From the IMG/VR virus record IMGVR_UViG_2706794694_000014: a DNA stretch of 41,126 nt. One strand, 5' to 3'. Below are positions 1-41,126 of the stretch, in pieces. Each line of letters starts with the position of its first letter. The stretch's first letter is position 1. The DNA comes from a virus (Duplodnaviria > Heunggongvirae > Uroviricota > Caudoviricetes). Under the pieces are notes generated by a model that had not been told where the DNA came from, searched no databases, and saw only the letters and a program-made list of their open reading frames with translations. The position numbers and the translations under genes are program-made.

Positions 1-858
1 ATGATGGCATTATTACTGGAGCCACTGCAGTTCACCTTTATGAGTCACGCACTGCTGATTTCACTGGTAGTTTCCATACCCTGTGCGCTGCTGTCGGTCT
101 TTCTGGTCCTGAAAGGTTGGGCACTGATGGGTGACGCGATGAGTCATGCGGTTTTTCCTGGTATTGTGCTTGCCTGGATTCTGAGGTTACCTCTGGCTAC
201 AGGGGCATTCGTCGCCGGAGTATTCTGCGCGGTGGCGACGGGATACCTGAAAGACAACAGCCGAATCAAGCAAGATACAGTGATGGGGATTGTTTTTTCT
301 GGCATGTTTGCCGCAGGTCTGATCTTGTATATTGCAGTCAAACCAGACGTACATCTTGACCATATTCTTTTCGGCGACATGCTCGGGGTAACCATCGGCG
401 ATATAATCCAGACGGTGATTATTGCCGGGCTGGTTACACTTGTTATTAGCGTAAAATGGCGGGATTTTTTGCTGTTCAGCTTTGATTATCAACAGGCGCA
501 GGTAAGCGGTTTGCATACGAGATGTCTGCATTATGGGCTGCTGTGCATGGTCTCTCTGACCATTGTGGCGACGCTGAAAGCGGTAGGTATCATTCTCTCC
601 ATTTCTCTGCTCATTGCGCCTGGCGCCATTGCGGTACTCCTGACACAACGCTTTCATATTGCGCTCCTACTGGCGATTGGCATATCGGTAATAGTGTCAA
701 TGACTGGTGTCTGGTTGTCCTTTTTTATCGACAGTGCACCAGCTCCGACGATTGTCGTCTTATTCGCGGTTGTGTTCATCATGACGTTCACCGTTACCAG
801 CATCAACGCACGCACAAAGGGAAACACCCATACACAGGATTTGTCATCACCCAATTAG
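1..858 (+). CDS. sitD: ABC-3 family metal (Mn/Fe) transporter permease, SitD/MntB-like; probable prophage cargo
   Basis: 285-aa highly hydrophobic multi-TM ORF starting exactly at position 1; sequence recalled as SitD-like permease. Upstream sitABC would lie outside the window. Confidence 0.6.
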   Translation: MMALLLEPLQFTFMSHALLISLVVSIPCALLSVFLVLKGWALMGDAMSHAVFPGIVLAWILRLPLATGAFVAGVFCAVATGYLKDNSRIKQDTVMGIVFSGMFAAGLILYIAVKPDVHLDHILFGDMLGVTIGDIIQTVIIAGLVTLVISVKWRDFLLFSFDYQQAQVSGLHTRCLHYGLLCMVSLTIVATLKAVGIILSISLLIAPGAIAVLLTQRFHIALLLAIGISVIVSMTGVWLSFFIDSAPAPTIVVLFAVVFIMTFTVTSINARTKGNTHTQDLSSPN

Positions 859-1070: not shown

Positions 1071-1341
1071 TTACTCCCTGACAGGGTTCGTAGGCCACTC
1101 AATATCAGGTGCAGTTGACGTATCAACACGGTTCAGCAATACCCGATACTTTTTCCATGCTTCCAGCAACGAGATTTCTTCCTCCGTTGCAATTTCCAGA
1201 TCTGCAGCATCCTGAAGCGGCGCAATATGCTCACTGGCTACCTGCATCAGGTTGTTTTTTGTTTCTTCCGCCTCCCGGATCCGGAACAGTTTTTCTGCTT
1301 CCGTATCCTTCACCCAGGCTGTGCCGTTCCACTTCTGAAAC
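1071..1341 (-). CDS. tfa: Tail fibre assembly protein Tfa, C-terminal part (N-terminus lost in N-run)
   Basis: C-terminal ...[28 protein letters not shown] matches the lambda Tfa C-terminus. The ORF track merges it with stf only because Ns translate as X. Confidence 0.7.
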
Positions 1342-1574: not shown

Positions 1575-4286
1575 CATACCTACTGAGCCTTGTACACCCC
1601 AGGTATTTTGACCTGAGCTTGTATAACCATATTGATAAGTATCTTTAAAAACACTGGGGTTAAATCGACGGCCATCTCTATGGCTGTGATTACCAGCTGC
1701 ATTCGTGCTGCCACTTAAACTATGGGTATGCGCACCAGTGTTATTCGTGGATTTAGTGCCGTAATCAAACGACGATGTGGTTTTCGTCCCCAAATCCGTA
1801 CTGGATGCGCTGGCGCTGTGGGTATGCGATTTAATGCCGTCCTGTTCCTGAGACAATACGGCCCGACCACTGGCAGGTTTGCCCTTAATCGTCCAGCCAC
1901 GCATATCAGGGATCACGCCTGACGGATAAGCCGCTGCAAGTTTCGGGTATGCAGATTTGTCAAAAGCCTGCCCCTGCATCAGGGCATAGCCAGACGGAAC
2001 GGTATCTGATGGCCACGGGATTGGTGCGCCAGGCGGATAAAACTGCTCTGATGGCGTATAGAGTGAATAAACTGTACCGTCCGTTAACCCTTCCGGCTTA
2101 TTAGCAGAATATGCTGGTGACGTATGAATCGTCACGCTGGCATTACTGGTATAATCCCATTGAATATTTACACCAGTCGCATAATTTCCGATTGCAACGT
2201 AAATATCGTAAGTATCACCAGATGTATTAACCCAGGCAAAATTTGTAAACCCTGTCAATGTGCGCTGCCATAAAGCACCAGTAATCCCCTTCGGATTACC
2301 ATTACCTGCACGTAAAACAAGTTCAGATATACCTGCCTGTTGAGGTGACCCCACGTTAAATCCAGCGCCACCAATCAACGTAATTGAAACAACAGAACTC
2401 GCCTGTGGCATGGTTACCGTTGCTAATTTGAACCAACCAGCACCACCGCTGAATGACATTGTTGTTGAGTTAAGCGTACCAATATCTTTCGGCGTCAGTG
2501 TTATATCCGCTGAAAGCGCCTTACCATTCACCTTACGGGCAGAAGGTACCCGACCATTCGCATTGTCATTAGCTGCTTTCACTGCTTTCGGTGTCGCAGC
2601 AAGCGTTTCAGATGTGCTGTTGGTTGCACTACTGAGCTGGACAATTCCTTTTTGTGCTGTCGTAGCGTCCTGTGCGGTGTATTTCCCGTTAGCCAGGTCA
2701 TACGCGGCCTTAACGGCTTTTGGCGTTGCCGCCTGTGACTCGGAAGTGCTGTTAGTCGCACTGCTGAGCTGAACTATCCCTTTCTGTGCTGTCGTTGCAT
2801 CCTGTGCGGTGTATTTCCCGTTAGCCAGGTCATACGCGGCCTTAACGGCTTTTNNNNNNNNNNNNNNNNNNNNNNNNNNNNNNNNNNNNNNNNNNNNNNN
2901 NNNNNNNNNNNNNNNNNNNNNNNNNNNNNNNNNNNNNNNNNNNNNNNNNNNNNNNNNNNNNNNNNNNNNNNNNNNNNNNNNNNNNNNNNNNNNNNNNNNN
3001 NNNNNNNNNNNNNNNNNNNNNNNNNNNNNNNNNNNNNNNNNNNNNNNNNNNNNNNNNNNNNNNNNNNNNNNTGACGCCTGTCTGGTCGCCTCATCTTTTG
3101 AAGCAGACGCAGATGATGCCGATGACGCCGCCGAACTGGCGGACGATGCGGCAGCCGTTTTTGAGGATTCTGCGCTGGTTTCCGACGCTTTCGCGTTCGT
3201 TTCGGATGTCTTCGCTGCGGAAGCAGACCTCGCTGCTGCGCTGGCCTGTTCAGTGGCTTCGCCAGCCTTCGTTGTGGCTGTTGAAGCGGATGATGCGGCG
3301 CTTTCTGCCGATTTTCCGGCGGCGGTGGCACTGACTGCTGCCTCCTCTGCCTTAATGGACGCCTCACGGGCCGATGATGCAGCTGCTGTCTCAGAGTCTG
3401 CCGCAGCTGAGGCGCTCTGTTCCGCTGCCGTTTCAGAAGACTTAGCATTCGTCTCGGACGTTTTTGCCGCCTTCACGGAATTTCCTGCCGCCGTTGCCGA
3501 GGAGGCTGCACTGCTGGCGCTTGTGGAGGCGTTCGTTTCTGATGATTTTGCCGCCTCTTTGGAGGCCGCCGCATCTCTGGCTGAAGTGGCGGCTTCTGAC
3601 GCTTTCGTTGTCGCAGTGGATGCAGAAGTGGCTGCTGATTTTTGTGACGCTGCAGCATTCGTTTCTGACGTTTTCGCCGCACCGGCACTGGTGGCCGCCG
3701 CGCTTTTTGAGGACTCTGCAGCGGCAGCACTTTTTGATGCTTCAGTGGCCTTTGTTGATGCCGTTCCTGCGCTGGAAGACGCCTCCTGAGCCGAAGTCGC
3801 GGCCTGTCCGGCTGACGTGCTGGCTGCACGCGCTGAGCCTGCAGCATCAGTCGCATGGGTTGCCGCCTCACGGGCAGATGTGCCGGCATCACTGGCTGAC
3901 TTCTTCGCGGCTGCCGTGTTCTGTGCCACCGCGGACGCGTTACGCGCCACCTCTTCCACCATCAGTTCAAAACGGCGCAGAGCCTCCGGACGGGCATCAT
4001 CCTCCGTCATGGCACCGAGAAAATCATTCAGCGTACCGGGTCGGGAATCTTCATACACAGTGATGGTCCCGGCATGTGACGGCGGGAATCCTTCCACCAA
4101 CAGAATAACGCTGTACTGACCGTACTCAACGTCCATGCTGTAACGCCCGGCTTCATCCGGATTTTCTGAGGCCAGCGTGTTCACCACCACCGTGGTGCTG
4201 TTACGTTTTGCTTTCAGCTGGATTGTGCAGTTCTGTACCGGTTTTCCTGTGCCGTCTTTCAGTACACCTGAAATCTTTACTGCCAT
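1575..4286 (-). CDS. stf: Side tail fibre protein (lambda Stf homologue); C-terminus lost in gap, internal gap 2854-3071
   Basis: N-terminus [62 protein letters not shown] is near-identical to lambda Stf; long Ala/Ser/Thr-rich shaft; ATG at 4286 preceded by GGGGTG (track start 4292 is a GTG two codons upstream). Confidence 0.85.
2590..2853. repeat. Intragenic tandem repeat in stf (unit ~132 bp, at least 2 copies, continuing into gap)
   Basis: gtatttcccgttagccaggtcatacgcggccttaacggctttt occurs at ~2681-2723 and ~2811-2853; encoded peptide [41 protein letters not shown] repeated. Confidence 0.8.
2854..3071. other. N-run (218 nt) inside stf, adjacent to 132-bp tandem repeats
   Basis: Run of n characters immediately after a repeated 132-bp unit. 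Confidence 0.99.
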
Positions 4287-4295
4287 ATTCACCCC

Positions 4296-4326
4296 ACAAA
4301 AAAGCCCGCCTGAACCGGCGGGCTGT
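4296..4326 (-). terminator. Rho-independent terminator downstream of lom
   Basis: Minus strand agcccgcc-ggttc-aggcgggct followed by TTTTTT. Confidence 0.7.
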
Positions 4327-4350
4327 CATAACACTGTGTTACCTGGCTAA

Positions 4351-5413
4351 TCAGAATTTATAACCGACACCCACGATGAAACCGTCAGTGCGCCAGTCGC
4401 CACTGCCGGAGCCTTCATAAGCAATATCAATGGCCACGGATTCGGTCGGGTTAAACTGCACGCCAGCTCCCCACGCCAGAGACGTGTTGCTGTGGCGACC
4501 GTCATCACTTCCGGTCAGCACGTCGTGCGTTTTCCCCTTATTGTCAGTTACGCGGATATAATCCCCGGAAAAAGTCGACACACGGCTGTAAGCCACACCC
4601 GCCATCGCATACGCGCTGAACCANNNNNNNNNNNNNNNNNNNNNNNNNNNNNNNNNNNNNNNNNNNNNNNNNNNNNNNNNNNNNNNNNNNNNNNNNNNNN
4701 NNNNNNNNNNNNNNNNNNNNNNNNNNNNNNNNNNNNNNNNNNNNNNNNNNNNNNNNNNNNNNNNNNNNNNNNNNNNNNNNNNNNNNNNNNNNNNNNNNNN
4801 NNNNNNNNNNNNNNNNNNNNNNNNNNNNNNNNNNNNNNNNNNNNNNNNNNNNNNNNNNNNNNNNNNNNNNNNNNNNNNNNNNNNNNNNNNNNNNNNNNNN
4901 NNNNNNNNNNNNNNNNNNNNNNNCCAGCGGGTATCGCTGTAACGGGTCAGCTGGCGATTCTTGTCTCCTGCATAGCTGAACGACGTCACCATCCCCAGTG
5001 TGTCCGTAAACTCATAACGGTATTTCACGTTAATCCCGTTCAGATCATCACTGCCGGGAACGTTCGTCCGGGCATGAAGATACCCCGCGCTCAGCGTGGA
5101 CTGATGTTCAGACGCCCATGCAGGCGCACCGGATACGGACGGAATCTTCATGCCAGCGGGTATCGCTGTAACGGGTCAGCTGGCGATTCTTGTCTCCTGC
5201 ATAGCTGAATGACGTCACCAGCCCCAGCGTATCCGTAAACTCATAACGGTATTTCACGTTAATCCCGTTCAGATCATCACTGCCGGGAACGTTGGTCCGG
5301 GCATGAAGATACCCCGCGCTCAGCGTGGACTGATGTTCAGACGCCCATGCAGGCGCACCGGATACGGCCAGACAAATGGCTGCGGACAAAATTGCTGCAC
5401 AAACTTTACGCAT
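4351..5413 (-). CDS. lom: Lom-like outer membrane protein (Ail/Lom family), disrupted in assembly by a 300-nt N-run and a ~228-bp tandem duplicate of its 5' part
   Basis: N-terminus MRKVCAAILSAAICLAVSGAPAWASEHQSTLSAGYLHARTNVPGSDDLNGINVKYRYEFTDTLG and C-terminus ...DIAYEGSGSGDWRTDGFIVGVGYKF match lambda Lom; 4924-5151 nearly duplicates 5152-5380. Confidence 0.8.
4624..4923. other. N-run (300 nt) inside lom
   Basis: Run of n characters. Confidence 0.99.
4924..5151. repeat. Tandem duplicate (~228 bp, a few mismatches) of lom 5' coding region 5152-5380
   Basis: Direct comparison of the two segments; junction encodes ...TRWHEDSVR then restarts at the signal-peptide sequence VSGAPAWA. Confidence 0.85.
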
Positions 5414-5424
5414 AATTACCTCTC

Positions 5425-5465
5425 GCTTTTCTGCAATAAAAAAGGCGTCATTCCTGACGCCCTTT
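5425..5465 (-). terminator. Rho-independent terminator downstream of J (tJ-like)
   Basis: Minus strand ggcgtca-ggaa-tgacgcc followed by ttttttatt; A-run on the other side, so possibly bidirectional. Confidence 0.7.
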
Positions 5466-5483
5466 ATTGGGGTTATAAATATT

Positions 5484-8400
5484 TCAACGAATACTGATGC
5501 CGGAAGCGGCTTTTTTGGTCACAATCACCGTACAGTCGGTGATATTGCCTGCCCCCTGATTGCCTTTCTGGAAAATCTTAAACTCCAGAGTGACGCTTCC
5601 CCTGCCACTCGGCATATCAATAACTGCACTGTAACTACCGGGAATGGCCCCTTTAGTTTCTCTGGATGCGATTAATACGCCGTTTTTGCGAACTTCAAAA
5701 CCATAACCCGTGTATCGCGTGCCTCCTGGGTTATTTCCGCTCCCCGGATCGTCATACGCTATACCGTTAAAAATAATGGGCGGAATAATAATCTGGCGGT
5801 CAAAGTTATGATCATCGCTGATGGTGACTGTAACCGTACCGTTTGGTGTTTCCGTGTTACCCCACGTACCGACTTTTTTCGGGAAGGCTTTTGATACAGC
5901 TTTAACGAAATCTCCTCTGACCTGGGTCGCCTCCAGCATGCCCTTAATCGTACAGTTCTGGTTAATCGTGACATTGTTGAGCGTCCCTGAATTTGCATTC
6001 ACATTACCGCTGATATCCGCATTTTTAGCGGTCAGCTTTCCGTCTGGTGTCAGGGAAAATGCCGGCGGATTTCCACCGCTGGTAATGGTGGGAGCCGTCA
6101 GGCGTTTCAGGAACACGTCATTCATGAATATCTGGTTGCCCTGCGCCACAAACATCGGCGTTTCATTCCCGTTTGCCGGGTCAATAAACGCGATACGGTT
6201 AGCGGCAACCAGAAACTGGCTCAGTTTGCCTTCCTCCGTGTCCTCCATGCTGAGGCCAATACCCGCGACATAATGTTTGCCGTCTTTGGTCTGCTCAATT
6301 TTGACGCCCCACATGGCATTCCACTTATCGTTGGCGTCCTTCCACTCTTTCGAAAACTCCTCCAGTCTGCTGGCGTTATCCTCCGTCAGGTCGACTTTTT
6401 CCAGCAGCTCCTGGCCGAGATGGGATTCGGTTATCTGGCCTTTGAAAAAATCCAGGTAACCTTCCGCATCATCGCTCGCCCGACCGACAGCCTCCACGAA
6501 TGCTGATTTGCCGACGGTGTTCACACTGCGGATATAAAAGTAATAATCATGGCCCGGCTTAATATTGATACTGGCGGCTATCCAGTACAGCCCCGTGCCA
6601 AGGTAGCGGGCTGTGGTTTCAACCTGCCTGATATCCGCAATCCGTTTTTCCGAGAACCAGAACTCAAACTGTACCGTCGGGTCATAAACCGCAAGATGCG
6701 GCGTGGCGGTTATCTGAAAATAGCCCGGCGTCAGCTCAATCCGCGACGGCGCTGCCGGTGCGGCAATCCGGAACGATACCGACGCCGGATCGCCCTGCTG
6801 CCCCCACGCATTTACTGCCCGGACTGTCAGCCTGTAGTTCCCCAGAGCCAGTTGTGTGAAGCGGTAAGTGGTTTCCGTCGTCCGGGCCGTGCTGACCAGC
6901 CGCTCACGGCCGTCATCCGCTGCCACGGTCAGGCGAAGCAGGAAGCTCACGCCCTTCACCACCTTCGGCGTGTCCCAGCGGGCCAGCACCTGGTATTCCC
7001 CGCTGTCTGCGGTGACTTCTGCGGTCAGGTGCTGCACCGCTGGCGGCGTGACACCATTTACCGTGCCGCTCTGGTCGCCGTCAAAGTGCGCCCCGTTATC
7101 CACGATGGCCTCTTTTTCCGGTACATGCTGCACGGCAGTGATGGCATACGTGCCGTCGTCGTTCTCACGGATACTCACGCAGCGGAACAGGCGCTGGCGC
7201 AGCGTCGGCAGCTTCAGCCCCCATACGCTGTATTCAGCAACGCCGTCAGGAACACGGCTCACTTTCACCTTCACGCCGTCGGTGACGGACTGAACCTCCA
7301 CGCTGACCGGACTCCCCTGCCCGTCAACCAGGCTTATCAGCGTGGTGCCGGAAGATGGCAGCGTGATTTCACGGTCGAGCGTCAGCGTCCGGGTCTGGCT
7401 GTTTACCGCCAGCACGCGCCCGCCGGTGCGGATACCGGCATAGTCATCATCGCAGATTTCAATGACATCGCCCGGTACATGGCGAAGCCCTTCGGCACCC
7501 ACGCTGAAGTCCACGGTCTGCGTTTCCAGCAGTTCTGTTTTAATCAGCCACAGCCCGGCGCGGTGTGCCTGCCCCCGGCTGGTACAGCCAAAAGCATCCA
7601 TCTTCGTGACGTTACGACCGTAACGGGCAATGGCCTGCGTGTCCTCCACAAGCTCTGTCGCCGTCTCCCAGCCGTTATTCGGGTCAATCCAGTTCACCTC
7701 AACGGCATTATGGCGGTCCTTCAGGGCGCTGAAGCTGTAGCGGAACGGCGCACCATCATCCGGCATCACCACATTACTGCGGTTATAGGTCCACACCTTA
7801 TCCGACGGTCGGTCCTGCACGAACGTCAGCGTCTGCCCGTTCCATACCGGCATACAGCGCATCGCCGAGCAGAAATCACTGAGCACATCCCACGCCTTGC
7901 GCTGTGTGGTCAGGTACGCATTACAGGTGATGCGCGGCTCCGTGCCGCCAAAACCGTCCGGCACCGACTGATCGCAATGCTGGCCGATGACATACAGCGC
8001 CCATTTGTCCACATCCGCCGCACCAAGACGTTTCCCCATGCCGTAGCGCGGATGGGTCAGCATATCCCACAGACACCAGGCCATGTTGTTGCTGTATGCT
8101 GGCTTAAACGTTCCGTCCCAGATACCGCTGTATTGCCGCGTCTGCGGGTTATAGCTCGACGGCACCTGCAGAATGCGCCCGCGCAGATGATAATTACGGC
8201 TCACCTGCTGGCTGCCGAACTGCTCCGAATCCACCTGCACGCCGACCAGTGCCGTGTTCGGGTAGCACTGTTTCACATCGATGATTTCGGTGTATGACGA
8301 CCAGAGCGTTTTGTTCTGCAGCTGGTCTGTGGTGCTGTCTGGCGTCATCCTGCGCATCCGTATATTGAACGGGCGCGGCGGCAGGTTACCCACCACCACC

Positions 8401-10251: not shown

Positions 10252-11158
10252 TTACTGCGAAAGTTTGTTAATGGAAAGGAAGCCGCCAAAGTTGCCGACG
10301 TTATTGCGAAACTTACAGCCGCTCAGGCATTTGCTGCATTTATCCTTCGTGATATCGGACGTCGGCTGATCATATTCATCCGCGACCGCCGGACCGTGAT
10401 AACCGCACTCATCGCCGCGATAGGTCCAGGTGCAGGTGTTGGCCAGCATGATACGTCCCGGAAAAACAGCGCCATCCGTTTCCGTCGGCGTGGACAGTAC
10501 AAANNNNNNNNNNNNNNNNNNNNNNNNNNNNNNNNNNNNNNNNNNNNNNNNNNNNNNNNNNNNNNNNNNNNNNNNNNNNNNNNNNNNNNNNNNNNNNNNN
10601 NNNNNNNNNNNNNNNNNNNNNNNNNNNNNNNNNNNNNNNNNNNNNNNNNNNNNNNNNNNNNNNNNNNNNNNNNNNNNNNNNNNNNNNNNNNNNNNNNNNN
10701 NNNNNNNNNNNNGAGGCACTCACCGCGCTCAGTTCGCTGCACTGCTCGATGCGCCAGCGGCTGATCACCTCCTGCTCCGGATCGGCGTCACTGTTTCCGT
10801 TGACGAAGTTCACCGCATCCAGAAAACGGGCGTAAACCTTACGCCGGACCACCGTTCCGCCGACCAGACTCTGCAGATCTTCCGCCATCCCGGTGACCAT
10901 GCCGTGCAGGTTAGAAACCGTCAGTGTCGGACGGGCAGCACTGCCCTTGCCGTTCAGTTCAAAACCACTCCCCTGAATGGGATACGGCTGATACTGTCGC
11001 CCCTGCCAGGTGACCGGCTCACCTTTTTCGTTCTGCTCATTACAGAAAAAATAACGTTCTCCACCGACCTCTGTCAGATCGATTTCCCAGAGCACCACCT
11101 GGGCTGACTGAGTGAGGCGTGTCGTCTCATGATGTGTTTCCTGTGGAATATCCTGCAT
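10252..11158 (-). CDS. L: Minor tail protein L (interrupted by N-run; flanks are contiguous in protein sequence)
   Basis: MQDIPQETHHETTRLTQSAQVVLWEIDLTEVGGERYFFCNEQNEKGEPVTWQGRQYQPYPIQGSGFELNGKG...; C-terminal Cys cluster TCTWTYRGDECGY...CSKCLSGC. Confidence 0.9.
10504..10712. other. N-run (209 nt) inside L
   Basis: Run of n characters; flanking codons encode ...SELSAVSA(S) and FVLSTPTETDG, which are adjacent in lambda L as recalled. Confidence 0.99.
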
Positions 11159-25982: not shown

Positions 25983-26292
25983 NNNNNNNNNNNNNNNNNN
26001 NNNNNNNNNNNNNNNNNNNNNNNNNNNNNNNNNNNNNNNNNNNNNNNNNNNNNNNNNNNNNNNNNNNNNNNNNNNNNNNNNNNNNNNNNNNNNNNNNNNN
26101 NNNNNNNNNNNNNNNNNNNNNNNNNNNNNNNNNNNNNNNNNNNNNNNNNNNNNNNNNNNNNNNNNNNNNNNNNNNNNNNNNNNNNNNNNNNNNNNNNNNN
26201 NNNNNNNNNNNNNNNNNNNNNNNNNNNNNNNNNNNNNNNNNNNNNNNNNNNNNNNNNNNNNNNNNNNNNNNNNNNNNNNNNNNNNNNNNNNN
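25983..26292. other. N-run (310 nt) removing most of the holin gene
   Basis: Run of n characters. Confidence 0.99.
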
Positions 26293-34263: not shown

Positions 34264-35092
34264 GACGATGCCCTCCGCTGATATTCAGGAGACGGTGAAT
34301 ATGAAAATTAGCCTTATCCGCCAGACGAATACGTTCAGCTTGCAAGTTAAGAAGGGTTTCTACCAGAACCTGATGTGCCTGCGGATCCGAAAGAGTTACC
34401 TTGCGCAGAGCACGTAGTGCAGTTGTTACATAACTGAGTTTATGTAAGTCTTCATCATTCAGACGAGTGAGGGCTGGGACAGTAGCCATGATGGCAGCCT
34501 CCTTGATCGGTGAAATACTTCCACCACCGGAAACGCCAATTTCGCTGGTGGTGAACTGAACGGGGTTGGCGTAACCGGTGATCAAGGAAACCGGCGCATC
34601 TTTCGATGCCCCCGCCCAGCCCACCATAACTTTGATGTGAGCAAATGCGGACGATAAAAAAGACGCTGGCGCGTCATATATCGCCTTGATCAATTCCAGG
34701 ACGCCAATCCCGGCACCCGCTTTATAAGGTGCCTGAACAGTGTAACGTCCCGGAATGGCAGAATCAATGTGCTGGTGGTCCTTCACACTCAACAAAATCA
34801 CGCCTGAATTTCCACAAAGGACTAAAGCACTCATGCGGGTAGTCTTTGCGAAGATAGATAACGCGCTGTGTTTCTGGCTCCCAACGAATAACATGAACAT
34901 AAAGTCCTCTTCCGTCACGAAACCAGCGGTTAAGTTCCTGCACAACTCGCCCCCCACAGTCAGGTAAAGTTCTCTGTGGTTACTTACAGCCAGGTGATTT
35001 GGTAATCTGCATTCATGCCGTAACAACAGGTGTTCAGCGACGCTGACCACCAGCTGTTGCGACAAACGGTTATTTGCCGTTAAACTGTTCAT
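34256..35092 (-). CDS. Hypothetical protein (replication-region, unrecognised)
   Basis: 278-aa ORF translationally coupled to neighbours; no motif recognised. Confidence 0.5.
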   Translation of the reverse strand: MNSLTANNRLSQQLVVSVAEHLLLRHECRLPNHLAVSNHRELYLTVGGELCRNLTAGFVTEEDFMFMLFVGSQKHSALSIFAKTTRMSALVLCGNSGVILLSVKDHQHIDSAIPGRYTVQAPYKAGAGIGVLELIKAIYDAPASFLSSAFAHIKVMVGWAGASKDAPVSLITGYANPVQFTTSEIGVSGGGSISPIKEAAIMATVPALTRLNDEDLHKLSYVTTALRALRKVTLSDPQAHQVLVETLLNLQAERIRLADKANFHIHRLLNISGGHRHA

Positions 35093-35974: not shown

Positions 35975-36649
35975 ATGAAAACAGTCCATGACATCCGGCG
36001 GTCTAACGCCAGAAAACTGAGAGATGGTGTTGGCGGGAATTCTTCCTTTGCCACCATGATTGATCGCGAGCCAACCCAGACCAGCAGGTTTATGGGAGAT
36101 GGTGCAACTAAAAATATCGGTGACAGCATGGCACGGCACATCGAAAAATGTTTCGACCTGCCTGTCGGATGGCTTGATCAAGAACACCAGACAACGAACA
36201 TCACAAAAAAACCTGACGTTTCAATCACTAACAAACAAATAACGTTAGTCCCTGTCATATCATGGGTACAGGCCGGAGCATGGAAAGAAGTTGGCTATTC
36301 TGAGGTTGATTTGAGCACAGCAGAAACTTATCCCTGCCCTGTACCCTGTGGCGAAATGACTTATATCTTGCGGGTGATTGGTGATTCAATGATTGATGAG
36401 TACCGCCCGGGAGACATGATTTTTGTTGATCCTGAAGTCCCTGCCTGCCACGGTGACGACGTTATTGCATTGATGCACGATACAGGCGAAACCACCTTCA
36501 AGCGGTTGATAGAAGATGGAACACAGCGTTATCTCAAAGCATTAAACCCAAACTGGCCTGAGCCTTACATTAAGATTAACGGTAATTGCTCTATAATTGG
36601 TACAGTGATTTTCTCAGGAAAACCAAGAAGATACATAATAAAGGCCTAA
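35975..36649 (+). CDS. CI-like prophage repressor (HTH + LexA-like S24 autopeptidase domain)
   Basis: C-terminal VISWVQAGAWKEV...LRVIGDSMIDEYRPGDMIFVDPE...FKRLIEDG...LKALNPNWPEPYIKINGNCSIIGTV closely parallels P22 C2 / lambda CI. Confidence 0.9.
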   Translation: MKTVHDIRRSNARKLRDGVGGNSSFATMIDREPTQTSRFMGDGATKNIGDSMARHIEKCFDLPVGWLDQEHQTTNITKKPDVSITNKQITLVPVISWVQAGAWKEVGYSEVDLSTAETYPCPVPCGEMTYILRVIGDSMIDEYRPGDMIFVDPEVPACHGDDVIALMHDTGETTFKRLIEDGTQRYLKALNPNWPEPYIKINGNCSIIGTVIFSGKPRRYIIKA

Positions 36650-36660
36650 TCAATATTTAT

Positions 36661-36684
36661 AACCTGCTTCGGCAGGTTTTTTTA
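36661..36684 (+). terminator. Rho-independent terminator after cI
   Basis: cctgc-ttcg-gcagg followed by ttttttt. Confidence 0.75.
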
Positions 36685-36687
36685 TAC

Positions 36688-36716
36688 TTGACAATGTACC
36701 TTTGGGATACATAATG
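36688..36716 (+). promoter_or_regulatory. PL-like early-left promoter with embedded operator
   Basis: -35 TTGACA, 16-17 nt spacer, -10 CATAAT; spacer contains tgtacctttgggataca, matching the OR operator motif. Confidence 0.6.
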
Positions 36717-37335: not shown

Positions 37336-37698
37336 ATGGCTAGCGAACGCAGTACTGATGTGCAGGCATTTATTGGGGAGCTGGACGGCGGCGTATTTGA
37401 AACCAAAATCGGCGCAGTTCTCAGTGAAGTCGCTTCCGGTGTGATGAACACGAAAACCAAAGGTAAGGTCTCACTCAACCTGGAAATCGAACCATTTGAT
37501 GAGAACCGTGTGAAAATCAAACACAAACTCTCATATGTTCGCCCGACTAACCGCGGGAAAATTTCCGAAGAAGACACCACCGAAACGCCGATGTATGTCA
37601 ATCGCGGTGGTCGCCTGACTATTCTGCAGGAAGACCAGGGACAATTACTGACTCTTGCCGGTGAACCTGACGGAAAACTCCGCGCAGCAGGTCATTAA
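37336..37698 (+). CDS. Hypothetical early protein (YfdP-like)
   Basis: 121 aa from MASERSTDVQAFIGELDGG with AGGAG RBS; the track ORF 37150..37698 is an upstream extension. Confidence 0.6.
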   Translation: MASERSTDVQAFIGELDGGVFETKIGAVLSEVASGVMNTKTKGKVSLNLEIEPFDENRVKIKHKLSYVRPTNRGKISEEDTTETPMYVNRGGRLTILQEDQGQLLTLAGEPDGKLRAAGH

Positions 37699-37763
37699 TA
37701 TCGTTCTTAATTAACCGATTATTTATCTCATCACTGAATATCTTTATATAGTGAGGACTTATT

Positions 37764-38588
37764 ATGTCTCAGAACTTAGACGCAACCGCAATTAATCAAA
37801 TCCATGCCCTTATTTCTGCTCAGGGTGTTAATGAAATTATCAGTAAGATTGGTGCCGATGCTGTGGCATTGCCTGAGAATTTCCGCATTCATGATCTGGA
37901 AAAATTAAATTTAAATCGTTTCCGTTTCCGTGGTGCGCTTTCCACTGCCAGCATCGATGACTTTACTCGTTATTCTAAAGATCTTGCAGATGAAGGCACC
38001 CGCTGCTTTATCGATGCTGATAATATGCGTGCCGTCAGTGTTCTTAACCTGGGTACTATTGATGAACCAGGTCACGCAGATAACACCGCCACTCTCAAAC
38101 TGAAAAAGACAGCTCCGTTCTCTGCTCTGTTGTCTGTTAATGGCGAGCGTAACTCCCAGAAGTCACTGGCAGAATGGATTGAAGACTGGGCCGACTACCT
38201 TGTGGGCTTTGATGCTAATGGTGACGCCATTCAGGCAACCAAAGCGGCTGCGGCGATCCGTAAAATCACAATTGAAGCGAACCAGACCGCTGATTTTGAA
38301 GATAATGACTTCAGCGGCAAACGCTCCCTGATGGAGTCTGTCGAAGCGAAGACCAAAGACATTATGCCAGTGGCATTTGAATTTAAATGCGTTCCGTTTG
38401 AAGGTCTGAAAGAACGTCCGTTTAAATTACGCCTCAGCATTATCACTGGCGATCGTCCTGTACTGGTTCTGCGCATTATTCAGCTGGAAGCGGTACAGGA
38501 AGAAATGGCTAACGAATTTCGTGATCTGCTTGTTGAGAAATTCAAAGACAGCAAAGTAGAAACCTTTATTGGTACTTTCACCGCCTGA
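37764..38588 (+). CDS. DUF2303-like protein (YfdQ-like)
   Basis: 274 aa, [21 protein letters not shown]...; GAGGA RBS; family from memory. Confidence 0.6.
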
Positions 38589-38599
38589 TTTCATTACTG

Positions 38600-38626
38600 C
38601 AAATGCCCCTGCGGGGGCATTTACGG
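38600..38626 (+). terminator. Terminator-like hairpin after the YfdQ-like gene
   Basis: atgcccc-tgc-gggggcat followed by ttac (weak U-run). Confidence 0.4.
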
Positions 38627-38764
38627 AAGCGATAATTTTAACTATTGCCGCCCCTATAAAGAACCATTAAACAATAACGTGACGTAGCTATTGATAGTAA
38701 ATGAAGCACTTGCAAAATAATTGCATTGCGTATATATACACACATGTGTTGTATTACAGCGATA

Positions 38765-39559
38765 ATGGTAAAGCAAATGATTAACTCTGAAGCAATTGAG
38801 CAACTAATGTGGCTATGGTCCTTATTTGACATTAAATTCTTATCTATTCTTGCCGCTGCCTTCACTATATATTTTGGCGTGCAAAAAATATCAAAAAAGG
38901 TGACAGTGTCGTATTCAGCAAATGCAAGTAGAATATATGACATGCATATATCAACCATAATCCTGAATAATAAAAGAGATAATGCAATTGCTATATCTTC
39001 AATCAATATGGAGGTTGAAGGTAAAGGGATACTACAAGTTATTAAATTTGACTCCCCTCTTCTTTTAAAGAACTATGATTCTTTAAAAGTTGAACCACCA
39101 AAATTTAGCAGCCTTTACAATAATGATGGCGTAGTTAAGTTAGATATTTCTGATAAGTTTCATTTTTATATAATCACGACATCTGGAGATGAAATTAAAT
39201 GTATTTCTGAAAATAAATATGTAGCACCAAACATGGAAAACAAAATAGCTACAGACATAAGAAAATTTAATGGCATTGTCTTAACAAACAGAATGTCTTA
39301 TATTTTTTTCTATGCAAATGACAACGGAGAGAAATACTGCATAATAGATGTTTCATTGTTCATAAATGGTGACAACCCATTTCATTTTAATTTTTTAAAA
39401 GAAGATGAATTAAGAGATTTTTCTAGCATCCTTATTAGTTACGGATATCACCAACAGTTTAAAAGTTATGCATTGTTTAAAATAGACAACCATCTTGCTC
39501 CTTCTTTGGTTTTAAATAAATCAATGATAGAAAATAATATTATTGAAATGAATAAGTAA
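38765..39559 (+). CDS. AT-rich moron: membrane-anchored protein of unknown function (candidate exclusion/abortive-infection protein)
   Basis: Sharp drop in GC content over ~38700-39560; N-terminal TM helix LWSLFDIKFLSILAAAFTIYFGV; candidate own promoter (TTGCAA...TATATA) upstream; alternative starts at 38726 and 38777. Confidence 0.6.
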   Translation: MVKQMINSEAIEQLMWLWSLFDIKFLSILAAAFTIYFGVQKISKKVTVSYSANASRIYDMHISTIILNNKRDNAIAISSINMEVEGKGILQVIKFDSPLLLKNYDSLKVEPPKFSSLYNNDGVVKLDISDKFHFYIITTSGDEIKCISENKYVAPNMENKIATDIRKFNGIVLTNRMSYIFFYANDNGEKYCIIDVSLFINGDNPFHFNFLKEDELRDFSSILISYGYHQQFKSYALFKIDNHLAPSLVLNKSMIENNIIEMNK

Positions 39560-39595
39560 CTCACCGGGTGCAGCCGGTTATGATGGAGAAATGAT

Positions 39596-39877
39596 ATGAA
39601 TACCTTGTTTTTACTGATGGCTGAATTCAATACCCCAAACATTGAACTCTCAGCAGTTAGTCAAAAATACTTTGGTATGAGTCCAGCCACAGCAGAAGCA
39701 AAAGCAAACGCTTGTAAGTTGCCTGTACCTACATATCGCATCGGTACATCACAAAAAGCAAAACGTTGCATCAATATTCAGGATCTTGCGGAATACATAG
39801 ACAAAAGACGAGAAGAAGGACGTATCGAGTGGGAACAGGTCAGAACAGGCAAACAGAAGGGCAAAGAACATCACTAA
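39596..39877 (+). CDS. PrtN-family (pyocin-activator/excisionase-like) DNA-binding protein
   Basis: MNTLFLLMAEFNTPNIELSAVSQKYFGMSPATAEAKANACKLPVPTYRIGTSQKAKRCINIQDLAEYID matches the PrtN-family pattern as recalled; GGAGA RBS. Confidence 0.6.
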   Translation: MNTLFLLMAEFNTPNIELSAVSQKYFGMSPATAEAKANACKLPVPTYRIGTSQKAKRCINIQDLAEYIDKRREEGRIEWEQVRTGKQKGKEHH

Positions 39878-39878
39878 A

Positions 39879-39906
39879 GAAAAAACCCGCCTAAAGGCGG
39901 GTTTTC
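39879..39906. terminator. Bidirectional rho-independent terminator between convergent operons
   Basis: aaaaaacccgcc-taaa-ggcgggtttt. Confidence 0.8.
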
Positions 39907-40137: not shown

Positions 40138-40557
40138 TTACTCATCATCAATAGATGATACGCAATATTTATTTTTAAATTTAAGGTTCTTTGGCGTAAC
40201 TTCATCAGATATATCAAAACCGTCCAGAATTCTATTGAATGTAGCTTCTGGCATATCATCATGAACGGAAATCTCACCCGATCGCTGCTTTCTAACCATG
40301 TTATCCACTCGCCAAATTATAGCTTCAGCGTAAACAACATAACTTGGATGCTTGATAAAGCGATGATCACCAGAATTCAAGACGCAAGACGGATCGTGGG
40401 GGACACCATCCTTGATACTAGAAATATTAACAACTAAAACACAATAACAATCGTTAACGGGGTAATAAACAGGATCATTACAAATCACATGAAGATGATT
40501 GCATGGCCCAGTTGGGGCAAGCACAGTTCCTTTCCTGTATGGCTGATAATCCGTCAT
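40138..40557 (-). CDS. Unrecognised Cys/His-rich protein (139 aa), candidate toxin/effector partner of the Panacea-domain protein
   Basis: 4-bp overlap with the upstream Panacea gene; GPCNHLHVICNDPVYYPVNDCYCV...HDPSCVLNSGDHRF Cys/His cluster; no family recognised. Confidence 0.6.
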   Translation of the reverse strand: MTDYQPYRKGTVLAPTGPCNHLHVICNDPVYYPVNDCYCVLVVNISSIKDGVPHDPSCVLNSGDHRFIKHPSYVVYAEAIIWRVDNMVRKQRSGEISVHDDMPEATFNRILDGFDISDEVTPKNLKFKNKYCVSSIDDE

Positions 40558-41126
40558 GATAATTGCAAAGAAAATTCCTTAAGTTTCTGAGATTCTTCCA
40601 TTTTGCCAATTATACGATTAGCCTCATCCTCGCTTTTACCCTCACTGATCAGCATTTCTTTCAGGTCTATAGGCTTACGAGAATTGCCAGGATTGTGCCA
40701 CTCTGGACAAACGCTTTCTAAATGCGTCATGTTTGCGAGATCAAATCGGTTCATATGCCCATACAGAGAATAGATTTCATCTAAAATCCGGATATCTGCA
40801 CGGCTCAACTCATCAAAGACCTCGTCTGCATCCATTTCCCTCGGATCTGAACGCAACAACACATCATGCCCGTTCGTCTCTATCAGGTTGTACCAGTAGT
40901 CACCAATACCTTCAGCCTTACCACGAATCAAGTTCAGCGTATTCGACATGACTGGACCAAATTTCATAGAGTAAAGGCTATCTTCGCCGATCATCCTGCC
41001 ATGCTTCAAAATCGACTTGCGGTTAGACAGATAGAGCAGCTTCATCAATTTCAGATATGCCATGCGCCCACCTCGCTTAAGAAGTAGGTATGCAGCCATT
41101 TGAGCTACTTTTTCTTCGCAAAACAT
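40554..41126 (-). CDS. Panacea (DUF4065) domain protein, putative PanA-type antitoxin
   Basis: MAYLKLMKLLYLSNRKSILKHGRMIGEDSLYSMKFGPVMSN matches the DUF4065 signature (K-L-x-K-L-L-Y ... GPV) as recalled; ATG is the last codon of the window. Confidence 0.65.
   Translation of the reverse strand: MFCEEKVAQMAAYLLLKRGGRMAYLKLMKLLYLSNRKSILKHGRMIGEDSLYSMKFGPVMSNTLNLIRGKAEGIGDYWYNLIETNGHDVLLRSDPREMDADEVFDELSRADIRILDEIYSLYGHMNRFDLANMTHLESVCPEWHNPGNSRKPIDLKEMLISEGKSEDEANRIIGKMEESQKLKEFSLQLS

Follow-up and report, generated by a model that had tools for sequence, protein, structure and literature searches.

For the early-left arm of a lambdoid Escherichia coli prophage integrated at dusA, the best explanation of our data is that a dispensable block running from yfdR to an exonuclease gene was replaced by a horizontally mobile cassette holding a single gene. 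The gene encodes a 260-aa protein with a predicted membrane anchor, and belongs to an unnamed family found in cargo slots of many mobile elements, which makes it a reasonable candidate phage-exclusion gene. We give roughly an even chance to the proposal that its product is a stand-alone, membrane-tethered exclusion or defence protein benefiting the carrier element. The features of the region are listed below in positions of the window, that is, the whole 41,126-nt stretch of DNA that was analysed.

35975..36649, plus strand: cI-like repressor gene (ymfK; HTH and Peptidase_S24 domains; Pfam Peptidase_S24, E 1.5e-26)
36661..36678 plus a T run, plus strand: intrinsic terminator after cI (pattern scan)
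36688..36715, plus strand: promoter-like site TTGACA-16-CATAAT, 11/12 matches, the best in the region (pattern scan)
37336..38588, plus strand: yfdP and yfdQ, conserved backbone upstream of the cassette (Pfam DUF2303, E 8e-93; RefSeq names)
38597..38626, plus strand: GC-rich conserved hairpin after yfdQ, the left edge of the variable slot
38632..39563, plus strand: AT-rich cassette (junctions set by aligning KH_005, H10407 and SfV; the GC minimum of the window starts at 38632)
38691..38718, plus strand: weak candidate sigma-70 promoter TTGATA-16-CAAAAT, 9/12 matches
38777..39559, plus strand: coding sequence of the 260-aa protein (100% identical to the RefSeq coding sequence of WP_047654657.1, "hypothetical protein")
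38810..38881, plus strand: predicted N-terminal hydrophobic (transmembrane) helix, residues ~12-35 (hydropathy, flank charges, AF2)
38900..39370, plus strand: predicted Ig-like beta-sandwich, residues 42-198, of which 144-152 form a disordered loop
39401..39553, plus strand: predicted small C-terminal alpha/beta subdomain, residues 209-259 (AF2 secondary structure)
39596..39877, plus strand: PrtN-family excisionase-like gene xis (Pfam PyocinActivator, E 3e-23; PHROG 1300 "excisionase", E 1e-39)
39881..39906, minus strand: strong terminator hairpin with an 11-bp stem (terminator scan, minus strand only)

The cassette is compositionally foreign to the prophage. When all 932-nt segments of the window free of N were compared (mean GC 51.3%, sd 5.7), the minimum of 29.6% (z -3.8) fell on the segment starting at 38632, exactly at the junction, and the lowest value elsewhere was 37.4%. 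A second low-GC stretch at ~25.9-26.3 kb was dismissed as a run of N. The gene itself has a GC content of 29.0% and a GC3 of 26%, against 46% in the left flank, 42% in the right flank and 50% in the entire window. The ~0.93-kb cassette is made up of the gene, ~145 nt of 5' region before it and 4 nt past the stop codon. In dusA-integrated sister prophages, a variable slot is bounded by the yfdQ hairpin on one side and by the PrtN-type xis on the other, and in the prophages of KH_005, H10407 and O157 it contains yfdR, 2-4 further genes and a 3'-5' exonuclease gene (~2.7 kb). Since this slot is already filled in the sisters, the cassette is a replacement and not a pure insertion. E. coli genomes with the hairpin number more than 2,300, and it also occurs in SfV, in Stx2c-converting phages, and in H10407 and KH_005, a distribution indicating that it is conserved phage backbone and does not belong to the cassette. 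The locus shows cleanly that, in lambdoid prophages integrated at dusA, an exchangeable slot is delimited by the hairpin at one end and by the ribosome-binding region of xis at the other.

The sequence-only reading had described the region as a horizontally acquired, AT-rich moron. The low GC content and the horizontal origin are borne out by the analysis, which finds a single-gene cassette of foreign composition within the early-left arm of a lambdoid E. coli prophage. A moron as defined by Juhala and Hendrix is extra DNA between genes that lie side by side in related phages, has a different base composition together with its own promoter and terminator, and is expressed from the repressed prophage (PMC3594210). 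The deviant base composition is present here and in 13 other loci examined, but no insertion between adjacent genes is seen, the slot being occupied in KH_005, H10407 and O157. The cassette is not a textbook moron: it replaces ~2.7 kb of early genes, carries no terminator of its own and has only a candidate promoter.

The cassette region contains one real gene only. The mechanically called open reading frame extends from 38726 to 39559, and the start common to all homologues, which is also the RefSeq call, is the ATG at 38777 (MIN...); starting instead at the in-frame ATG 38765 would lengthen the protein to 264 aa. The open reading frame proposed earlier for a protein of ~265 aa is therefore real, but the conserved start yields 260 aa. 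A dN/dS of 0.36, with pN far below pS, indicates that 38777-39559 codes for a protein under purifying selection. The protein matched PHROG 14996 (function unknown) over 260/260 positions with an E value of 2.3e-178, and this was its sole match in the homology searches. Neither Pfam nor NCBIfam matched it, PADLOC-DB v2.0.0, which is expected to include the PD-lambda systems, gave no match at E up to 0.1, and a PDB sequence-profile search returned nothing at E up to 1, in agreement with the earlier claim that it has no recognisable domain. Every one of 33 tested relatives matched PHROG 14996 alone, and scans of 33-50 relatives with Pfam, PADLOC and PHROGs added no named family; no PADLOC model fitted the 50 family members searched, which gave only two stray single-member matches, at E above 1e-3. 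The PHROG 14996 family, to which the window protein is a full-length match, has neither a Pfam or DUF number nor a solved structure. The gene itself had no match when INPHARED (phages) and PLSDB (plasmids) were searched at the DNA and protein levels.

The family comprises ~220 cluster representatives (about 221) of 240-260 aa from Enterobacteriaceae, Vibrio, Aeromonas and relatives. Full-length homologues share 40-92% identity, and those down to ~20% identity, from several gammaproteobacterial genera, retain the length and the architecture. In all 14 loci examined, the gene has a GC content of 29-36% between flanks of ~39-62% and occupies an accessory slot with no conserved partner gene. A profile search of genome contigs with a narrow alignment returned one locus only. 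The slots are of several types. The gene lies before xis-int in the window and in further loci of the family, in nin regions (early-right operons) in Klebsiella and in loci L013 and L041, between gpA and the portal gene in a P2-like prophage, after zot in an inovirus, and among the cargo of a T4SS (conjugative) element. The family moves between very different mobile elements, and the P2 interval between gpA and gpQ is a defence hotspot (PMC9122126). In the inovirus, PDC-M36A and a defence gene of the dCTP-deaminase type (E 4e-142) lie within 6 kb of the homologue; in L041, the homologue is 200 nt downstream of RmrT and RmrA, a complete Rosmer pair, and is not itself RmrT; in one locus, an OLD/AriA-like ATPase lies 2.6 kb from the gene. 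Known defence genes were found nearby in just 3-4 of ~13 distinct contexts, which form a non-random sample.

The early-left placement proposed from the sequence was confirmed by the order of cI, terminator, promoter-like site, yfdP, yfdQ, the gene and xis on one strand. The cI-like gene, named "LexA family protein ymfK" in RefSeq, matches the position of SfV cI and is where the leftward arm begins. SfV has an annotated terminator at the place equivalent to 36661-36678, and the site at 36688-36715 is a candidate pL. The transcription signals proposed for the cassette itself fared less well. The hairpin after yfdQ, described as terminator-like, is real and stable (dG -23.4 kcal/mol, z -4.1), but it is no canonical terminator, as a U-tract is missing and the scan for terminators left it uncalled. 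The candidate promoter of the gene does not rise above chance, as 11 such sites were seen in the region and 12.4 were expected from shuffles. The pattern scan called no terminator between 39559 and 39596, and xis begins 36 nt downstream of the gene. The strong hairpin at 39881-39906 lies 4 nt past the xis stop codon, at the end of convergent minus-strand genes, and, judging by its position, it is probably also where the plus-strand leftward transcript stops. Constitutive expression in the lysogen would be somewhat awkward, since transcription would run on into xis, which no terminator precedes. The missing terminator and the chance-level promoter fit an early gene expressed at induction as well as one expressed in the lysogen. 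Promoter and terminator pattern scans were uninformative for the window and for two homologous loci, and the region gave no match in Rfam or tRNA scans. Indirect support for a regulatory region of its own comes from the ~130 nt 5' of the gene, which are conserved with a Citrobacter copy in a different context, and from locus L044, in which the gene stands alone on the strand opposite to its neighbours. The candidate promoter lies in this partly conserved 5' region.

A rival possibility is that the gene is an accessory lytic gene of the pL operon, switched on only after induction or infection, which would modulate the host membrane or division or aid the development of the phage itself, comparable to lambda Kil and other nonessential pL genes, and would leave the lysogen unprotected. 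The tight packing on the same strand between yfdQ and xis with no intervening terminator, the chance-level site at 38691-38718, the replacement of other nonessential early genes by the cassette, and the copies inside early-right operons in Klebsiella, L013 and L041 all agree with such a role. However, an early lytic function of lambdoid type is implausible for family members in the P2-like hotspot, after zot in an inovirus or in a conjugative element, and both the lone, oppositely oriented gene of L044 and the 5' region that travels with the gene argue against it. We regard this explanation as unlikely.

Hydropathy and structure prediction agreed with the proposal of a single N-terminal hydrophobic helix. 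The highest Kyte-Doolittle 19-mer scored 1.68 and the runner-up just 0.95, and AF2 placed a helix at residues 4-38. The hydrophobic segment is only moderately hydrophobic and is broken by D18 and K20 in the close family. Averaged over 50 family members, K/R residues number 2.3 in the C-terminal flank vs 0.8 in the N-terminal flank, consistent with the positive-inside pattern, and a single-pass topology with the N-terminus outside and the C-terminus cytoplasmic is predicted. The whole AF2 model (pLDDT 85.6) combines this helix with an Ig-like sandwich, which carries the conserved motifs NK[KR]D[KN] and PL[IL]LK, and with the small C-terminal subdomain (pLDDT 86-95). Structure searches returned generic Ig-like folds only, and no catalytic or nuclease fold was matched. 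A pilin-like top match was discarded because the protein has no class III signal peptide, and Arrestin/Spo0M-like matches were discarded at TM-scores of ~0.2. As modelled, the Ig-like sandwich is a generic interaction fold that points to no specific function. The 260-aa protein has no signal peptide and no lipobox; its first 140 residues contain no Cys, and the sole conserved Cys is C142, the other conserved positions including N65, D68, P94, K98, Y179 and N205. A receptor-blocking lipoprotein of the Cor or Llp type, which would need a signal peptide with a lipobox cysteine, was thus ruled out.

A lysogenic-conversion or host-fitness factor outside defence, for example a membrane-tethered adaptor altering envelope physiology, stress tolerance or virulence, would also accommodate an Ig-like domain as a generic interaction module, and AT-rich, horizontally acquired cargo resembles many conversion genes. 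The window also carries the fitness cargo sitD and Ail/Lom. However, the predicted cytoplasmic orientation is at odds with surface or virulence roles, as is the lack of a signal peptide and lipobox, and the distribution of the family tracks accessory and defence slots of mobile elements instead of pathotypes, the host isolates including bovine, chicken, human and opossum ones. A conversion role is thus quite doubtful.

A single membrane-anchored protein recurring across many mobile elements could also stabilise its carrier as a toxin acting on the membrane or as an addiction (post-segregational killing) element, and membrane proteins are frequent among toxic effectors (PMC9122126). This is improbable, since no conserved antitoxin gene is adjacent in any context, type I toxins do not resemble a 260-aa protein whose cytoplasmic domain is folded, and 99 complete E. 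coli genomes carry the gene intact. The idea of a non-functional AT-rich remnant with a chance open reading frame, for which an overlapping 122-aa antisense frame (38638-39006) might speak, has a negligible probability and is refuted by the full-length homologues of unchanged length and architecture, by the selection on the gene and by the confident AF2 model, AT-rich DNA moreover yielding long frames less often, not more.

The location and the architecture of the protein make it a candidate for superinfection exclusion or abortive infection (Abi), whereas its membrane localisation in vivo, the timing of its expression, its target and any phage-resistance phenotype are inferences. In the proposed mechanism, the N-terminal helix would anchor the protein in the inner membrane, leaving the short acidic N-terminus in the periplasm, and the remaining ~220 residues, comprising the Ig-like beta-sandwich and the small alpha/beta subdomain, would face the cytoplasm. 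There a non-enzymatic binding domain may sense some part of the incoming phage or of other invading DNA machinery. Recognition might then block productive genome entry, as for HK97 gp15 and P22 SieA or by the positioning logic of SNIPE, or it might drive the helix to disturb the membrane with an Abi-like outcome; we consider these two options about equally probable. Put more broadly, the family may be a new single-gene type of anti-phage or anti-mobile-element protein, in which an Ig-like sensor or blocker in the cytoplasm, held by a membrane anchor, would act without an enzymatic domain at the inner membrane face on incoming DNA-delivery machinery, carried by tailed prophages (lambdoid, P2-like and podovirus-like), inoviruses and conjugative elements of Gammaproteobacteria. 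We hold this broader proposal tentatively, at slightly less than an even chance.

If phage exclusion is its function, the family would be a compact, enzyme-free and membrane-tethered defence family missed by current catalogues, as PADLOC has no model for it and WP_047654657.1 is absent from the tables and supplements of DefensePredictor; the accession was not found in a literature search either. About 2% of complete E. coli genomes carry the gene, O25b:H4 among them, and it also occurs in Shigella sonnei; in that case it could affect the host range of phage therapy. If it has no defence role, it is an ordinary hypothetical cargo gene.

Several known systems resemble the proposed one in part. 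Lactococcal Sie2009-type proteins and lambda and P22 SieB are membrane-associated exclusion proteins encoded in the lysogeny or early-left region, within the repressor-integrase interval; their expression in lysogens is established, and their sizes and topologies are unlike those of the window protein. Their placement matches that of the gene in the window, in the Citrobacter copy and in loci L014, L038 and L043, all in the repressor-integrase region, and no homology was detected. HK97 gp15, a much smaller, YebO-like protein, shares with the window gene its status as compositionally foreign prophage cargo. It is a small moron-encoded inner-membrane superinfection-exclusion protein that, acting alone, blocks entry of the incoming genome (PMC3594210), and P22 SieA, a prophage-encoded inner-membrane protein, also acts singly against genome entry (PMC10883804). 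Neither gp15/YebO nor SieA has a sequence or fold relationship to the 260-aa protein, which matches PHROG 14996 only and nothing in Pfam, and SieA has 162-164 aa and three transmembrane helices, whereas the window protein has a single helix and a large Ig-like domain predicted to be cytoplasmic. SNIPE (PD-lambda-1) is a single-gene E. coli defence with an N-out single-pass anchor that holds its cytoplasmic bulk at the site of genome injection (PMC13190303). The predicted N-out/C-in topology of the window protein is the same, but SNIPE's DUF4041 domain and its GIY-YIG nuclease are both absent from it by Pfam, and it has no nuclease fold. Suicide effectors of signalling defence systems, for example Cap15 of CBASS, can combine one or more N-terminal membrane helices with a C-terminal all-beta sensor domain, an architecture similar to that predicted for the window protein.

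The window holds most of a lambdoid prophage. Over this region it is 100% identical to E. coli O25b:H4, where the prophage is integrated at dusA: the integrase adjoins dusA at the far end, and the near end has a dusA fragment. The local gene order is as follows.

Gene order around the AT-rich gene
Before ymfK: cro-like ymfT (-), start of the local order
35975-36649 (+): cI-like ymfK
36661-36678: intrinsic terminator after ymfK
36688-36715 (+): TTGACA-16-CATAAT, near-consensus sigma-70, the best promoter-like site of the region
Between this site and yfdQ: yfdP
37764-38588: yfdQ/DUF2303
38597-38626: hairpin between yfdQ and the AT-rich gene
38632-39563 (+): AT-rich cassette
38777-39559 (+): AT-rich gene
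39596-39877: PrtN-family excisionase-like gene (xis), PHROG 1300 'excisionase'
39881-39906: strong terminator hairpin, called on the minus strand, just past the xis stop
Beyond it: three convergent genes, among them a Panacea (SocA-like) antitoxin gene and its overlapping 139-aa partner, then zur

The site at 36688-36715 is likely the pL equivalent, and approximately 620 nt without an annotated gene lie between it and yfdP. Because of this gene order and a layout shared with phage SfV (cI, terminator, yfdP, yfdQ, hairpin), 'early-left operon', the placement proposed by an earlier sequence-only reading, is a fair description.

The low GC content noted in that reading was borne out. GC falls from 43-54% to 26-34% over about 38650 to 39550, and among all N-free 932-nt windows of the 41-kb window the minimum starts at 38632 (29.6% vs a mean of 51.3%, sd 5.7, z -3.8), the runner-up stretch elsewhere reaching 37.4%. 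A second apparent dip near 26 kb was rejected as a run of N. Five N runs (209-310 bases; 1342-1574, 2854-3071, 4624-4923, 10504-10712 and 25983-26292) break up tail-fibre, Lom, tail and holin-region genes, and the last of them imitates a low-GC island in composition plots. The sole substantial sense ORF of the AT-rich region is 38726-39559. Its gene start is ATG 38777 (MINSEAIEQL..., 260 aa), which is kept in all homologues and agrees with the RefSeq call (WP_047654657.1, 'hypothetical protein'); the in-frame ATG 38765 would yield the ~265 aa suggested earlier. GC3 of the gene is 26% vs 35-67% in eight of the nine other window genes sampled, the ninth being the 139-aa gene at 40138-40557 (31%). 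In comparisons with distant copies, pN was much smaller than pS, and a 93% identical variant gave a dN/dS of 0.36. The AT-rich gene is shown to code for a protein under purifying selection.

Alignments with KH_005, H10407 and SfV placed the left cassette junction at ~38632, just 3' of the hairpin, and the right junction at 39564, 4 nt past the stop codon and 32 nt short of the xis ATG; therefore, a 932-bp unit, the ORF with ~145 nt of sequence 5' of it, has taken the place of the usual early genes. In the sister dusA-integrated prophages of KH_005, E. coli H10407 and O157:H7, the slot from hairpin to xis spans ~2.7 kb, with yfdR, a 3'-5' exonuclease and between two and four small genes. The hairpin is present in >2,300 E. 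coli genomes, and phages that have it include SfV and Stx2c-converting phages; among 5,426 complete E. coli genomes, xis was found in 741 and the AT-rich gene in 99. The hairpin and the conserved CCGGGTGCAGCCGG stretch with the ribosome-binding region (39564-39595) before xis act as two fixed slot ends, between which different prophages carry different gene sets. This amounts to the exchange of a mosaic module, with both boundaries conserved. A textbook moron is something else: DNA added between adjacent genes with its own promoter and terminator (PMC3594210). Because the cassette is a replacement without its own terminator, the earlier label 'moron' is right only loosely. In NZ_CP121157.1 and NZ_CM172811.1, an IS element (IS1X2 or IS50R) lies inside or beside the yfdQ-cassette region. 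The O25b:H4 sister prophage (L004 28708-30607) carries a reverse transcriptase and SLATT-domain pair, likely a defence system, between tail-fibre genes and DinI/int; this is where the window has sitD, and the position is therefore a second variable cargo slot. A third at this prophage end is the CoiA-like insertion in H10407 (L022 4506-5540), between xis and a conserved 57-aa minus-strand gene.

The hairpin preceding the cassette is part of the conserved phage backbone. Its folding energy of dG -23.4 kcal/mol was matched by none of 200 shuffles, so that it is stable, and in this sense its earlier description holds; it lacks a U-tract and was uncalled in the terminator scan, so that 'terminator-like' is not supported. 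The gene's own promoter proposed at 38691-38718 (TTGATA-16-CAAAAT) matches 9 of 12 positions, which is at chance level, as the region has 11 sites of that grade vs 12.4 expected from shuffles. Indirect evidence for a putative 5' regulatory region comes from ~130 nt of upstream sequence recognisably conserved with a Citrobacter copy (64% protein identity, different context) and from the viral contig L044, where the gene stands alone on the strand opposite both neighbours. No terminator was found between the gene and xis in the window or in the Citrobacter locus scanned, and a lysogen-active promoter would therefore read into xis; in L014, L038 and L043 the gap to xis, by length, is likewise ~25-55 nt. 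Induction-time expression from pL fits as well as the predicted expression in the lysogen. An induction-time early-left accessory gene is the strongest rival to a defence role, and an unlikely one.

The 260-aa protein had no match in Pfam, NCBIfam or PADLOC, in keeping with the initial impression of no recognisable domain. Its sole PHROGs match was phrog_14996 (unknown function; E 2e-178, full length), and by these matches we assign it to PHROG 14996 and to nothing else named. A word-indexed search of 5.8 billion proteins returned 11 clusters, which fall in E. coli/Shigella, Citrobacter and Klebsiella; Vibrio, Photobacterium, Aeromonas, Raoultella and Pseudoalteromonas came from a second indexed search, all of whose named matches were 'hypothetical protein'. 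An exhaustive profile search of 1.84 billion representatives gave 221 matches at E <=1e-3 and 141 at <=1e-10, a list that includes fragments; most full-length members have 240-280 aa and align to the greater part of the profile. Among 50 diverse members there was no consistent Pfam family and no PADLOC model save two stray matches with E >1e-3, and no PDB sequence matched the family profile.

We examined 14 loci, as returned by the look-ups rather than as a random sample, which comprise about ten distinct contexts beyond the window's own.

Contexts of homologues
Klebsiella (45% identity): nin-like region of a prophage judged podovirus-like from its Head-tail_con and Phage_nozzle genes, between MT-A70 methylase and DUF1367
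Citrobacter (64%): at the end of an island, directly ahead of a 68-aa xis and int; the islands upstream vary
L013, metagenomic lambdoid contig (53%): between replication genes and Q; an OLD/AriA-like ATPase lies 2.6 kb away
A further lambdoid contig (47%): cI, 63-aa ORF, gene, xis, int
L038 and L043 (IMG/VR): gene, xis, int at the contig end
L041: phage nin region, before DUF1367 and 200 nt downstream of a Rosmer pair on the same strand (4067-5801), which is complete with RmrT (E 9e-26) and RmrA (E 6e-107)
L044: by itself on the strand opposite its neighbours, flanked by an antirepressor/DUF968 block and an AT-rich DUF4145 gene
Buttiauxella: adjacent to an AT-rich HNH_2 protein
Vibrio parahaemolyticus (26%): in the cargo region of a conjugative element with a T4SS
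V. tasmaniensis (L017): directly after zot of an inovirus
Aeromonas veronii: P2-like prophage, between gpA and ogr/portal

Gene GC was 29-36% in all 14 loci, whatever the flanks (about 39-62%), and no neighbour gene is conserved across contexts, so that the unit is a single gene. The gene is thus shown to be a mobile single-gene cassette of foreign composition, which at least four types of mobile element carry in their accessory slots. The interval that holds the A. veronii copy corresponds to the gpA-gpQ defence hotspot (Rousset et al., PMC9122126). Known or candidate defence genes lie beside the homologues in L041, in L013 (7940-9904, the ATPase, between Q and holin) and in L017 (9441-13478, where PDC-M36A and a dCTP-deaminase defence gene, E 4e-142, are both within 6 kb).

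AF2 with a 33-sequence alignment (pLDDT 85.6, pTM 0.70), in agreement with the first model, confidently predicted one N-terminal helix and an Ig-like domain. The helix spans residues 4-38; a beta-rich region follows at 42-198, its loop at 144-152 being disordered, and then come short helices (209-227), two strands and a terminal helix (248-259). The single N-terminal membrane helix recognised at the outset accords with one hydrophobic segment (best 19-mer Kyte-Doolittle 1.68, next 0.95). Among 50 family members, the 15 residues after the helix average 2.3 K/R and 0.4 D/E and those before it 0.8 and 1.5, the C-terminal flank being the more basic in 40 members. The positive-inside rule thus predicts a short, acidic, periplasmic N-terminus and a cytoplasmic domain of ~220 residues on an inner-membrane anchor; there is no signal peptide or lipobox. 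K37, beside the membrane, is invariant in the 50-member alignment, and at least 90% of its members keep N65 (in NK[KR]D[KN]), P94 and K98 (in PL[IL]LK), S111, C142, Y179 and N205. These positions form no recognisable catalytic constellation, and the protein matches no known catalytic domain.

We infer, with confidence and doubt about evenly balanced, that the protein acts by itself as a determinant of exclusion or defence. It would sit at the inner face of the inner membrane and bind part of the incoming phage's DNA-delivery apparatus, or an early product, thereby blocking productive entry; alternatively, recognition may be turned into membrane damage (abortive infection). These are two sub-modes of the defence reading, which share that even weight jointly. 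HK97 gp15 and P22 SieA are precedents for an entry block (PMC3594210, PMC10883804), and SNIPE, shown experimentally to be N-out and single-pass with its bulk in the cytoplasm (PMC13190303), the topology predicted here, supplies the positional logic. Homology-based membership failed for gp15/SieA, SNIPE, PADLOC systems, pilins and Cor/Llp lipoproteins, and the protein resembles inner-membrane single-protein exclusion systems at most in working manner. The superinfection-exclusion or abortive-infection idea of the sequence-only reading is still a hypothesis, to which the context evidence now lends support. A conversion or fitness factor unrelated to defence appears somewhat less probable than the induction-time gene, and a membrane toxin or addiction element improbable; a non-gene is effectively refuted. 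AT-rich prophage cargo that lies near the repressor/integration end and encodes a membrane protein is familiar in kind, while the family itself is uncharacterised; as a defence candidate the gene is well defined and cheap to test, with an unusually broad distribution over mobile elements.

Several other features of the window were observed. The Panacea antitoxin gene (Pfam E 1.8e-18) overlaps the downstream 139-aa gene by 4 nt, the two lying within 40138-41126 (-) and running past the window end. The latter gene had no Pfam or PADLOC match and belongs to PHROG 19071 (unknown function); together they look like a PanA-type toxin-antitoxin pair, toxin unclassified, at the attR-proximal prophage end. 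A C4 antisense RNA (82 bits) and an isrK Hfq-binding sRNA (64 bits), both above the Rfam gathering score, lie side by side at 34544-34732 (-) in the early-right region near ash/ymfL-like genes. At 1-858 (+) is a complete sitD (iron/manganese ABC permease; Pfam ABC-3 E 2.5e-76; named from RefSeq matches), which adjoins tail-fibre genes, placing the sit operon beside the prophage tail end or as its cargo. Between sitD and the tail-fibre genes, adjoining an N run, is a full-length Rfam IS009 RNA candidate (1114-1312, minus strand, 221 bits).
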